Shown piece by piece: positions 5,889 through 7,431 of a stretch of DNA of 45,509 nucleotides. The notes beneath the pieces were generated by a model. It saw only the letters and a program-made list of their open reading frames with translations, did no database searches and was not told the DNA's origin. Both the position numbers and the translations under genes were made by a program. Numbering within the stretch: the stretch's first letter is position 1; every line of letters begins with the position of its first letter. The DNA comes from Candidatus Nomurabacteria bacterium RIFCSPLOWO2_01_FULL_39_18 (lineage in GTDB: Bacteria; Patescibacteriota; Minisyncoccia; Phycocordibacterales; UBA9973), in contig MFUV01000010.1 in assembly GCA_001787005.1 (NCBI GenBank), positions 158,235-203,743 of the forward strand, read 5' to 3'.

Positions 5889-5908
5889 CTCCTGCATCTC
5901 CCACACCC

Positions 5909-5927
5909 CCACATGTCAGACATGTGG
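5909..5927. repeat. Palindrome copy 1, CCACATGTC-A-GACATGTGG; provides the transposase stop codon
   Basis: Perfect 9-bp arms; the TGA at 5916-5918 (minus strand) lies within it. Confidence 0.9.
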
Positions 5928-6614
5928 AGAATAGCCAGTCCAATCAAAAATTTCTTTGTTGAAGTCATCAGTATTATTGAAATACTTGGGAAAATCAGAA
6001 AGATTTAAGATAGAATTTTCTCTACGAACAATCCCCTTGTGGTCAAGATAACTACTCCATTTATAGTTAGTTAAAAATTCTAGAACGATTTTTTTGTCTT
6101 TTATACCATTTTCCTTCCATTTACTATCAATCAATTTCACCGGGTTCAAATGAATATAAGAAAAAAGATACTTAGCTTGGACATCTTTTGAAACAAGCAC
6201 AGACTTAAATGGACCTTCAAAAAGACCGCCTCTATGATTATATTTTGCATTAAAATATTTAGAATATGCAGTCAAAAGCTTTCTTATAAATTCAGAAATC
6301 TGATTCTTCCCCCACATGTCTGACATGTGGGAATTTTTAGGATTTATTGTTAAATAAATATGAAAATGATTTGGCATTAAAACCCATGCGCCGATAGATA
6401 CTAATAGTTCCCCCCTAACAAATTCAAAGGCGTCTATTTTCACATCGACTATATCGTCACGAAACTTAAAGTTTTTATATGTATTACAAACAAAAAGACA
6501 TTTTATAAAATGACGATAATCATTATTATCTAGAAAAATTTTTTGCTTACTGTTCCCTCTATTGTAAATATGATAATACTCTCCGGAAACAAAAGGATGT
6601 TTTCTTGTTGCCAT
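5916..6614 (-). mobile_element. Y1/HUH tyrosine transposase (RAYT/IS200-like)
   Basis: YYHIYNRG, HUH motif LMPNHFH, YSKYFN..Y...GxLFEG.FKS, catalytic YIHLNP, YKWSSY. Confidence 0.9.
6311..6331. repeat. Palindrome copy 2 inside the transposase CDS (translated SHMSDMWG)
   Basis: CCCACATGTC-T-GACATGTGGG, perfect 10-bp arms, opposite orientation to the outer copies. Confidence 0.9.
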
Positions 6615-6636
6615 GACCTTGACCTTATTATATCAT

Positions 6637-6661
6637 TTCCCACATGTCAGACATGTGGGAA
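6637..6661. repeat. Palindrome copy 3 at the transposase promoter
   Basis: TTCCCACATGTC-A-GACATGTGGGAA, perfect 12-bp arms, directly upstream of a TGATATAAT extended -10 on the minus strand. Confidence 0.9.
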
Positions 6662-6707
6662 TGTGAGGATACTTGCTCATAAAATCCTCTTCTGGTAGCA
6701 TTTAACT

Positions 6708-7193
6708 ATGCCTGAAGGGAAAACATCATTTTTGGATAGAACAATGGAAAGATTGATGGAGGAAGATGAACCCAAAAAATGGTTTGATCTAAATGAAGTT
6801 GTATCTTGCCGAGTAGAAGACGATAATGAAATAAGTATTCACTTAGAATCAAAACAAGAAAAACCATTAGTAAATTTAAAATCCCTAGCAAGATCTGGAC
6901 TAGAAAAATTGGCCGAAATGTTAGAAAAGGAAGATCGATTTAAAAAAATCAAGCTCGTAACAGCAACCTCGTGGGTTGTAACCGAACATCCTGACCTTAT
7001 TACCAAAGCTCTAGGTTTCACCATTGATAATGAGAATAAATTTATAAATAGTTCTGTCAGAAAAATAAGGTATAAATACAAAAAGAAAAACATTCCCTTA
7101 AACAAAATATTCATAAAGCCCGGATTTGCTTTTATGTCAAGGGAGGAATTTCTAGATCGTTTTGGGAGCAAGAACAAAAAGAAAAATATATAA
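6708..7193 (+). CDS. Hypothetical protein
   Basis: 161-aa ORF with normal composition; no family recognised with confidence. Confidence 0.65.
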   Translation: MPEGKTSFLDRTMERLMEEDEPKKWFDLNEVVSCRVEDDNEISIHLESKQEKPLVNLKSLARSGLEKLAEMLEKEDRFKKIKLVTATSWVVTEHPDLITKALGFTIDNENKFINSSVRKIRYKYKKKNIPLNKIFIKPGFAFMSREEFLDRFGSKNKKKNI

Positions 7194-7228
7194 AAAGAGT
7201 TTAATTTTAATTAATAATTATAAAAAAA

Positions 7229-7426
7229 ATGAAACCAAGAATAGAAAAACCAATAAGTTCTGCGCCAACACAGAATGATTTAGATTTTAGAACAGATGCG
7301 GAATTAGTAAAAAGCATCAGAGAAAAAAGAGCAGGAGGAGTTCCCCTAGACGAGAGAGAAGGAAAGTTTGTAGATGAACAACAGAAGGAAGACAGAGAAG
7401 ATAGGGACAGATTGTATAGACAATAA
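7229..7426 (+). CDS. Small charged hypothetical protein
   Basis: 65-aa ORF after an A/T-rich leader, purine-rich coding strand. Confidence 0.55.
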   Translation: MKPRIEKPISSAPTQNDLDFRTDAELVKSIREKRAGGVPLDEREGKFVDEQQKEDREDRDRLYRQ

Positions 7427-7431
7427 CAACA

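Follow-up and report, generated by a model that had tools for sequence, protein, structure and literature searches.

A RAYT-like gene of a groundwater Patescibacterium with copies of one hairpin palindrome upstream of it, within its coding sequence and at its stop codon

The window analysed here, by which we mean the whole stretch of 45,509 nucleotides (45.5 kb) taken from contig MFUV01000010.1 of Candidatus Nomurabacteria bacterium RIFCSPLOWO2_01_FULL_39_18, holds a gene for a 232-residue protein that resembles the tyrosine transposases associated with repetitive extragenic palindromic (REP) sequences (RAYTs, or TnpA_REP), which carry a histidine-hydrophobic-histidine (HUH) motif. A short palindrome accompanies the gene in three copies, one upstream of the start codon, one in frame within the coding sequence and one over the stop codon. 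The source genome (G000), from groundwater Patescibacteria, comprises 813 kb in 13 contigs with about 39-41% G+C. The features of the locus, in window coordinates, are as follows.

5916-6614, minus strand: RAYT/TnpA_REP-like Y1 HUH gene, 232 amino acids (open reading frame list, Pfam, NCBIfam, AlphaFold model, Foldseek)
6360-6368, minus strand: HUH motif codons, H83-F84-H85 (alignments A1, A2 and A3)
6156-6158, minus strand: codon of Tyr153 in Y-IHL-N-P, presumed to be the catalytic tyrosine (alignments A1, A2 and A3)
6637-6661, no strand assigned: upstream palindrome copy, TTCCCACATGTC-A-GACATGTGGGAA, with 12-bp arms (pattern search, inverted-repeat search I5, folding)
6627-6635, minus strand: putative extended -10-like element, TG-a-TATAAT (read by eye)
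6311-6331, no strand assigned: internal in-frame copy, CCCACATGTC-T-GACATGTGGG on the plus strand (pattern search, alignment, translation)
5908-5927, no strand assigned: 3' palindrome copy, coding for the last residues S-P-H-V and the TGA stop (pattern search, translation, folding)
5896-5907, no strand assigned: outer extension of the 3' copy, pairing imperfectly with 6662-6670 (inverted-repeat search I1)
6662-6670, no strand assigned: outer extension of the upstream copy, partner of 5896-5907 (inverted-repeat search I1)

The window has three copies of the palindrome, CCACATGTC-W-GACATGTGG, where 0 are expected by chance. Its 19-mer, CCACATGTCWGACATGTGG, was found at 5909-5927, 6312-6330 and 6640-6658, each time with 0 mismatches in a search that permitted up to 2, and dinucleotide-preserving shuffles of the window gave no match (0/100); all three sites belong to the single open reading frame at 5916-6614. 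An earlier reading of this DNA from its letters alone (the sequence-only reading) had counted the same three copies, and had noticed the palindrome only at this locus, which is correct for the window but not for the genome, where 11 sites include four doublets elsewhere. The centre base on the plus strand is A, T and A in coordinate order, and the internal copy is therefore flipped relative to the other two. The TG-n-TATAAT element at 6627-6635, read by eye, lies 1 nt from the upstream palindrome, with 12 nt between its end and the ATG, so that the upstream copy does adjoin a putative -10 box as that reading had it; a consensus promoter scan, which requires a -35 element, listed no minus-strand promoter, TG-n-TATAAT included.

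On the coding strand the internal copy reads AAT TCC CAC ATG TCA GAC ATG TGG GGG, or N-S-H-M-S-D-M-W-G (residues 94-102). It begins 8 residues past H83-F-H85, and the palindrome-coded residues S95-H-M-S-D-M-W-G102 fall in a 10-residue insertion relative to short-loop paralogues. The 3' copy reads TCT CCA CAT GTC TGA on the same strand, with the stop codon (5916-5918) forming the centre of the palindrome. Both translations, the in-frame SHMSDMWG just after the HUH strand (residues 95-102, centre T against A in the other copies) and the terminal SPHV-TGA, agree with what the sequence-only reading had described. Its imperfect inverted ends are present too (5896-5916 against the reverse complement of 6651-6670; repeat I1, 31-nt arms, 84% complementary), but beyond the palindrome the similarity of the outer ends is weak, about 9/11 bases being alike with one indel. 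As also claimed, a reading of the sequence finds neither a GTAG nor a CGTC foot at any of the three copies. Folded as single-stranded DNA, the upstream copy reaches -11.5 to -11.8 kcal/mol (z about -4.5), the internal copy about -9.1 kcal/mol (z about -4.5) and the 3' copy -7.3 to -7.6 kcal/mol (z about -4), a range over the three sites together of -7.3 to -11.8 kcal/mol and z -3.9 to -4.6. On the plus strand, antisense to the gene, the internal palindrome followed by AATTTTT (6311-6341) scores as intrinsic-terminator-like; such a site would face read-through from dnaE, and its T-run is not kept in the relative L123.

The protein matches the Pfam family Y1_Tnp (PF01797) over residues 42-155 at 24.7 bits, above the gathering cut-off of 23 (E 2.8e-5), and 11 of the 12 members of the focal clade defined below match it at E <= 0.01. 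Two NCBIfam models stay below their cut-offs, the REP_Tyr_transpos equivalog at 52.1 bits against 80 and transpos_IS200 at 13.3 bits against 55. Conservation was judged in three alignments (A1, A2 and A3), of 7, 75 and 12 relatives: H83, H85, Y153 and N157 are invariant in all of them, and F84 and H155 are invariant in A1 and A3 and nearly so in A2. Parts of Quentin 2018 (PMC6006769) give Y---NP as the signature of class-2, TnpA_REP-like enzymes, and since Y153-IHL-N-P fits that pattern the protein carries the class-2 signature.

Structure comparison leads to the same relative. A profile search of solved structures ranks 4ER8 (TnpA_REP) first (E 0.0034), and the AlphaFold (AF2) model, built from 75 sequences with a mean predicted local distance difference test score (pLDDT) of 92.6, has as its top Foldseek match chain 4ER8_A, TnpA_REP with a REP hairpin (E 2.3e-7, template modelling score 0.65 on the target); the TnpA proteins of IS608 and ISDra2 come next at E about 1e-4, ranks 2-10 sharing the catalytic fold. 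The model places the HUH motif on a strand at residues 83-90 and Tyr153 within a helix at residues 144-161. The palindrome-coded residues 92-101 form a short helix between the HUH strand and a long helix at residues 105-125, and this short helix is the least confidently modelled part of the core (mean pLDDT of the block 82). By its Pfam score, its HUH and tyrosine motifs and its TnpA-like fold, the 232-residue protein belongs to the Y1 HUH superfamily. The sequence-only reading had proposed a REPtron-like enzyme, that is, one of tnpA_REP/RAYT type, bracketed by its own palindrome; a Y1 HUH protein whose nearest solved relative is TnpA_REP in complex with a REP hairpin accords with that proposal.

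The relation between the internal copy and the flanks recurs in the relatives of the gene. In a family sample of 61 genomes the six nearest relatives (L123-L128, 52-70% identity) all have the palindrome of their own flank or flanks in the post-HUH loop (6/6). The loop contains CCCACATGTC-S-GACATGTGGG in L123 (peptide NPHMSDMWRK), CCCTAGGTC-S-GACCTAGGG in L124 (SPRSDLGE) and TGCGAAAG-CAAGA-CTTTCGCA in L125 (NAKARLSQ). When the internal 21-mer of each of 12 members was compared with the flanks of all 12, 19-21 of 21 positions were alike with the member's own flanks in 9/12 members; L013 and L014 gave no internal-flank match in this table, and the 3' copy of L127 lay outside the stretch compared because of an in-frame TAG. 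This TAG, the only one in L127 (G032:C1:447310-447990), stands near the 3' end just past the 3' palindrome, and could be either a read-through artefact of the way the open reading frame was called or a stop that has moved recently.

A quick maximum-likelihood tree of 115 rows, from which rows shorter than 180 residues or without an NH[FYP]H motif were excluded, gathers the carriers of the post-HUH copy in one clade of 12 rows, 10 carriers and 2 non-carriers, with a Shimodaira-Hasegawa-like approximate likelihood ratio (SH-aLRT) support of 100. The carrier label changes 3 times on this tree against a mean of 9.8 when it is shuffled, a distribution that shows a single origin of the internal copy in the focal clade. 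We pooled all genes with both flanks, metagenome loci included, which gave 173 genes, 69 with an extended post-HUH loop and 104 with a short one. An exact word of at least 14 nt shared with the gene's own flanks was found in the extended loop of 56/69 genes, against 45/1380 pairings with the flanks of other carriers, and the positive genes fall into at least 24 distinct palindrome clusters.

The 57 distinct internal 27-mers, aligned on their centres, are paired at stem positions 3-9 in at least 54/57 cases, with 2-4 pair types at each position; position 7, for instance, is GC in 17, AT in 17, CG in 21 and unpaired in 2. Such changes are compensatory and place the constraint at the level of the DNA. 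The loop peptides differ between relatives (SHMSDMW, SPRSDLG, NAKARLS, TRKTVFRK). Taken together, the match to own flanks, the recurrence of this match over at least 24 palindromes and the compensatory stems show, therefore, that the peptide follows the DNA. The sequence-only reading had suggested aligning homologues and had named as fatal to itself a family that keeps SHMSDMW as protein sequence without a DNA palindrome. The alignment gave the opposite: each homologue has a palindrome cognate to itself, present in the post-HUH loop as well as at or over the 3' end, and the peptides vary while the pairing is kept, so that outcome did not arise. As a separate possibility we considered the shuffling of gene halves at the internal palindrome. 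This candidate was dropped for lack of support: over 66 pairs of the 12 members the N- and C-terminal identities differ by -0.07 to +0.23, with no outlier indicating an exchange there.

The relatives of G000 are metagenome-assembled genomes of Patescibacteria (labelled Nomurabacteria, Paceibacteria and similar). Two scans supplied related loci, one of species-representative genomes (565 relatives, the best 80 loci analysed) and one of metagenomes (391 relatives, again with the best 80 loci analysed). Among the best 80 of the 565, the gene has one palindrome on its two sides, upstream and either at or past the 3' end, at 53/80 loci, the 3' palindrome overlaps the stop codon at 16/80 and lies within the last 25 codons at 8/80, an internal copy is present at 14/80, and the median distance from the end of the upstream copy to the ATG is 23 nt. 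We compared words between coding interior and own flanks in 93 genes, made up of 79 of these 80 loci (one incomplete open reading frame was left out) and 14 genes of G000. An exact word of at least 16 nt is common to both in 23/93 genes, against 4/1860 pairings with the flanks of other genes, and 68/93 genes have no such word of at least 14 nt. The internal copies cluster in two loops that bracket the HUH strand, a pre-HUH loop (about residues 52-68) used in several clades and the post-HUH loop used in the focal clade. Every combination of orientation between internal copy and flanks is seen among the relatives, and tabulating them led us to reject the flipped orientation of the focal internal copy as a rule.

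Within G000 the focal palindrome (up to 2 mismatches) has its 11 sites as 3 at the gene and four doublets, with 0 sites for the reversed pattern used as a control. The copies of a doublet are spaced by 22-24 nt, and their centres are all G/C, as against A/T in the gene-linked copies. One doublet lies in frame, as PHVGHVDSTCPTCG, within a 769-residue topA-like open reading frame (L001:408-2717, minus strand, on G000:C10) about 126 kb upstream of the window. The insertion is absent from the same topA position in G037, G017 and G051, with a few extra residues in G032 and G034; its absence from the first three indicates that doublets come and go. Replacement of the topA palindrome in situ was rejected, because with no counterpart in G037, G017 and G051 the pattern looks like an insertion polymorphism. 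A second in-frame doublet, DHMSDLWDSHKSDMWP, lies at G000:C5:29585-29627 within a 167-residue open frame.

The same genome has about 13 further homologues (13-14 diverged paralogues) at 28-60% identity, the closest at 60%. Most have their own, different palindrome upstream and at the 3' end, and several also have it within the coding sequence; the palindrome families have 1-13 sites each, and three paralogues have inserts of 6, 10 and 19 residues. One remnant paralogue (C6:26866; G000:C6:26407-27353) is a 125-residue open reading frame that begins at its own internal palindrome, its upstream part gone, with more copies of the palindrome about 440 nt upstream and at the stop codon, and such a start is exactly what a deletion between copies would leave. 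Two others, C6:67678 and C4:47769 (C6:67663-68301 and C4:47769-48401), are 100% identical in DNA over about 250 central nucleotides and 70-80% identical on either side, with differing flanking palindromes, a pattern that looks like a recent gene conversion; conversion among the paralogues thus does take place in G000.

The details of the copies suggest what maintains their likeness. In L049 and L085 the palindromes are imperfect, and the same imperfections recur inside and outside the gene. The loops vary in length by 6-19 residues, two codon registers account for most of the palindrome centres (39 and 20 of 62), and the centre is A/T in all three focal copies and in none of the dispersed copies of G000. 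These shared imperfections, loop lengths, registers and centres point to copying and not to parallel point mutation. A bias towards copying in cis is on record: according to parts of Nunvar 2010 (PMC2817692), the neighbourhood of rayt is the preferred place for new REPs to arise, and the rayt stop codon is often directly adjoined by REPs. The copies also decay. L013, at 68% identity and with the same flanking palindrome, keeps the length of the insert and only a half-site, TCTGATGAGTGGGAA, inside it; L157 and L160 have kept their flanks while their internal copies decayed in a similar manner; L013 and L157 retain an intact open reading frame and flanks despite the decayed internal copy; and 9/69 carriers have no match of at least 12 nt to their own flanks. 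The decay in L013, L157 and L160 suggests that the internal copy is dispensable and not essential.

We suggest that the locus forms a REPtron-like unit, that recurrent copying in cis maintains the likeness of its three linked hairpins, and that a permissive loop of the protein tolerates the internal copy; we put the probability of this reading at about one half. The gene would encode a single-strand DNA nuclease-ligase of the RAYT/TnpA_REP class, bracketed by the hairpin palindrome that its class recognises. A third copy of the hairpin would have entered the post-HUH surface loop once, in the ancestor of the clade, and would have been translated since as a few extra residues. The copies would then have evolved in concert, each changed version of the hairpin being copied to all three places. 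The copier would most plausibly be the enzyme itself, working in cis on hairpins that its own locus extrudes, with short-tract conversion or a template switch over the 300-400 bp separating the copies as the alternative; recombination or template switching of this kind could have done what the sequence-only reading ascribed to an enzyme that deposits or maintains a site within its own gene. In other words, the internal copy would persist because the loop tolerates it and rewriting recurs, and it would need no role of its own. As side effects, the upstream copy on the promoter, the 3' copy burying the stop codon and the internal copy adding a hairpin to the mRNA would each be expected to keep expression low.

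Several considerations weigh against this account. Membership of the RAYT/TnpA_REP family is weak at the level of sequence, and the binding and cleavage of the focal hairpins by the 232-residue protein is an assumption drawn from family membership. The palindrome has turned over at least 24 times and 56/69 carriers still retain the internal copy, a high figure for something without a role, and one that fits selection at least as well as it fits neutral rewriting. Conversion of the RecA type is inefficient for tracts of about 20 nt. Cognate copies in the pre-HUH loop, 18 of the 115 rows by words of at least 14 nt, mean that the two favoured loops lie on either side of the catalytic strand, perhaps not by coincidence. 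Moreover, no rearranged, exchanged or deleted form of the locus was seen in metagenome contigs, the sole data type examined for it.

The main rival to a tolerated passenger is an internal copy that is required as a third site and held by selection, as an operator or decoy, as a partner in a synapse of left, internal and right copies, or as a self-destruct site. On this view the gene would be designed as its own substrate, its in-frame hairpin serving as a working third site that captures freshly made enzyme at its own locus, a proposal we hold only tentatively. It is similarly doubtful, though conceivable, that the captured enzyme would repress, synapse with or cut its own gene, which would amount to a self-limiting circuit written into coding sequence. 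A required site would account for the single origin and the retention of the copy in 10/12 members of the clade, for the excess of own-flank matches once metagenome loci are added (56/69 against 45/1380), and for stems that change in step while the peptide is free to vary. It would also make sense of the second cognate position, in the pre-HUH loop of other clades, of an upstream copy that stands consistently just ahead of the start codon, and of the remnant C6:26866, which begins at its internal palindrome as it would after a deletion between copies. It fits poorly with L013 and L157, where the flanking palindrome is the same and the internal copy has decayed beside an intact open reading frame and flanks; with the short loop of 104/173 genes and the 68/93 genes that have no own-flank word of at least 14 nt; and with an internal orientation that is not fixed relative to the flanks and a position, register and insert length that all vary. 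On balance we regard a required third site as possible but the less probable of the two. If true, the self-limiting circuit would explain how domesticated RAYT-like genes persist beside their hairpins in a 0.8-Mb genome that has not been wrecked.

The palindromes might instead serve another factor, such as a host DNA-binding protein, a terminator or RNA-processing signal, or the enzyme of another mobile element, their link to the gene being one of position only. REPs elsewhere bind several host proteins and act on mRNA, according to parts of PMC2817692 and PMC3733652, the same palindrome family lies in frame in unrelated genes such as topA, and the internal copy with its AATTTTT on the plus strand scores as terminator-like. 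Each diverged paralogue, however, has a different palindrome travelling along with it, which a shared host factor would not produce; the focal palindrome is multi-copy only in genomes with the focal gene type, and the T-run behind the internal copy is not kept in L123. We therefore think a separate factor improbable.

Slightly less probable still is an element that acts at the level of the mRNA, where the internal and stop-codon hairpins would pause ribosomes or stabilise the transcript as RNA and no DNA transaction would be involved. The hairpins are stable enough (-7 to -12 kcal/mol as DNA, z about -4), and the stop codon lies inside a hairpin at 16/80 loci. Liang is said to have found, in 2015, that REPs of E. 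coli close to stop codons lower translation. An RNA element gives no reason, however, for the internal hairpin to equal in sequence an upstream copy that is not transcribed, and leaves the copied imperfections unexplained; carriers with a paired hairpin unlike their flanks are nearly absent, 56/69 matching their own flanks, and a scan of Rfam gave nothing above threshold, its sole match being snoR64 at a chance-level 21 bits against 45. Chance, or selection on the peptide with an incidental palindrome in its DNA, we consider very unlikely given the 0/100 shuffles, the clear separation of own-flank from other-flank controls and peptides that differ wholesale between relatives while pairing is kept, the S-D at the centre of many loop peptides arising because TCN-GAC, a palindrome centre common to many of these palindromes, translates so.

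Comparison with known systems brings the locus closest to the REPtron (tnpA_REP/RAYT; E. coli YafM, PDB 4ER8; PMC2817692, PMC8266576). The two are alike in a Y1 HUH enzyme with the class-2 Y---NP signature and 4ER8 as its best structural match, in a gene bracketed by short hairpin palindromes that often abut the stop codon (the focal gene and 53/80 loci) and in dispersed copies that form inverted doublets, resembling the REP doublets forming hairpins (REPINs). They differ in that the focal clade has a third cognate copy in frame within the catalytic domain, co-evolving with the flanks, and in that many copies of the focal type lie inside coding sequence, whereas REPs are extragenic. G000 differs as well in its genome-wide numbers, with about 13 diverged paralogues in 0.8 Mb, each with its own palindrome, and 1-13 sites per palindrome family in place of tens to hundreds. 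Parts of Nunvar 2010 (PMC2817692) put REPs at usually more than 100 copies per genome, and parts of Bertels 2017 (PMC5581495) describe RAYT groups 2 and 3 as near single-copy, with housekeeping-like vertical inheritance and flanking 16-mers present 57-140 times per replicon. Neither a high-copy flanking palindrome nor a single-copy, vertically inherited gene is found here: the focal palindrome has 11 sites and the other families 1-13 in 813 kb, with 13-14 paralogues in G000 and the gene present in 26/61 genomes. Nor do the three focal copies have the GTAG or CGTC tetranucleotide that parts of Di Nocera 2013 (PMC3733652) place at the foot of REPs; palindrome centres in this system are 1-5 nt long, and the gene family is patchy (26/61 genomes) and falls short of the NCBIfam equivalog cut-off. 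The focal system thus departs from classical RAYTs and REPs in equivalog score, copy number, GTAG foot and single-copy gene, yet most plausibly works alike.

Elements of the IS200/IS605 type (IS608 and ISDra2 TnpA) share the catalytic fold and have hairpins bordering the coding sequence, subterminal ones that are recognised in single-stranded form according to parts of PMC8266576 and PMC6006769. The focal gene differs from them in having no near-identical copies in its genome (the best paralogue is at 60%), in an NCBIfam IS200 score of 13 bits against 55, and in left and right hairpins that are identical in sequence. We know of no internal copy of an end in any IS200/IS605 element. The REPIN-RAYT systems of Pseudomonas (PMC3116915, PMC5581495) have the inverted-palindrome doublet as their dispersed form and a cognate RAYT for each palindrome family, as here, and differ from the focal system in its copy numbers of about 10 and its expanded, patchy gene family. 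The TnpA_Y1 subclass 2.1, or TIRYT, has a C-terminal helix-turn-helix-like extension and, according to parts of Quentin 2018 (PMC6006769), no flanking REP-like sequences, whereas the focal gene is flanked by REP-like palindromes.

Two further precedents bear on the internal copy itself. Rickettsia palindromic elements (RPEs) are selfish palindromic repeats inserted in frame in protein-coding genes, and are longer than the focal palindromes. The focal doublet in topA (PHVGHVDSTCPTCG) is like them in being a short palindromic repeat read through as an extra loop peptide of an essential gene; to our knowledge no dedicated enzyme gene carrying its own copy has been described for RPEs. Phage Mu, with its synapse of left end, enhancer and right end, sets an earlier example of a transposase employing a third, internal site besides its two ends, and differs from the focal gene in that its transposase is a DDE enzyme acting on double-stranded DNA and its enhancer lies outside the transposase coding sequence.

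A literature search on RAYTs or tyrosine transposases with palindromes in Patescibacteria or the Candidate Phyla Radiation found no paper with the focal layout. REPs inside rayt coding sequence were not found in the main texts of PMC2817692, PMC3116915 and PMC8266576, and the portions of the REPIN-RAYT papers PMC3116915 and PMC5581495 that were covered make no mention of intragenic REPs. REP-flanked RAYT genes, REPs that abut the stop codon, REPIN doublets and in-frame palindromic repeats in Rickettsia are already known. Apparently new, and not found in the literature searched, is a cognate hairpin kept within the coding sequence of a RAYT's own gene, across a clade and co-varying with its flanks.

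The layout has implications for how REPs and REPINs are copied, which, like the role of RAYTs, has been an open question since they were first described. The clade offers a compact natural test bed, with an enzyme and three copies of its presumed substrate within 750 bp, and with dozens of natural variants of specificity, the protein having changed along with its hairpin in each. That a new version of the hairpin is written into several linked places, a coding loop included, is direct comparative evidence for a copy-over process. It also means that protein loops in minimal genomes can be dictated by a selfish DNA structure and not by the needs of the protein, which matters for annotation and for the reading of 'conserved' insertions in proteins of candidate-phyla bacteria.

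The gene belongs to a segment between dnaE and pth, identified by comparison with the same-genus genome G030.

5889-7431, no strand assigned: dnaE-pth segment, holding the RAYT-like gene and open reading frames of 161 and 65 amino acids without a Pfam family

In G030 (locus L094) pth follows dnaE after about 115 nt (L094:2098-2212); with dnaE directly before pth in that genome, the 1.5-kb segment is specific to the lineage of G000. G030 is a candidate for the empty site beside dnaE that the sequence-only reading had proposed to look for, but the junctions show no clean boundary and no target duplication, and the G000 segment contains the two further open reading frames as well, so the limits of a mobile unit are not definable from this comparison. 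The G030 spacer (L094:2098-2212) is itself packed with nested palindromes of a different family. Over the family sample the gene is patchy, with a match in 26/61 genomes and 0-13 matches in each, G000 having the most; G030 has one RAYT-like match, at 45% identity. The focal palindrome is present in 7/61 genomes and is multi-copy only in G000 (11 sites) and G037 (6), the two that hold the focal gene type. In another genus a different type of RAYT-like paralogue (L105, on G020:C36, 43% identity) is convergent to the 3' end of dnaE, and this end may be a recurrent landing place.

Nine sequencing runs contain the stretch, all available as contigs and with no RNA run listed among them. The contigs of four of these runs show no joint at the three palindromes, although contigs cannot show rare variants. 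At the locus they are short and broken at sequence shared with paralogues, with the short-sided joints typical of paralogues. In runs X1, X7 and X8, at window position about 6351, metagenome contigs homologous to the stretch that codes for the HUH motif run on into GCGGAAGC-AAG-GCTTCCGC, a palindrome unlike that of the focal gene at the same place; these contigs represent a further natural variant of the layout from the same habitats.

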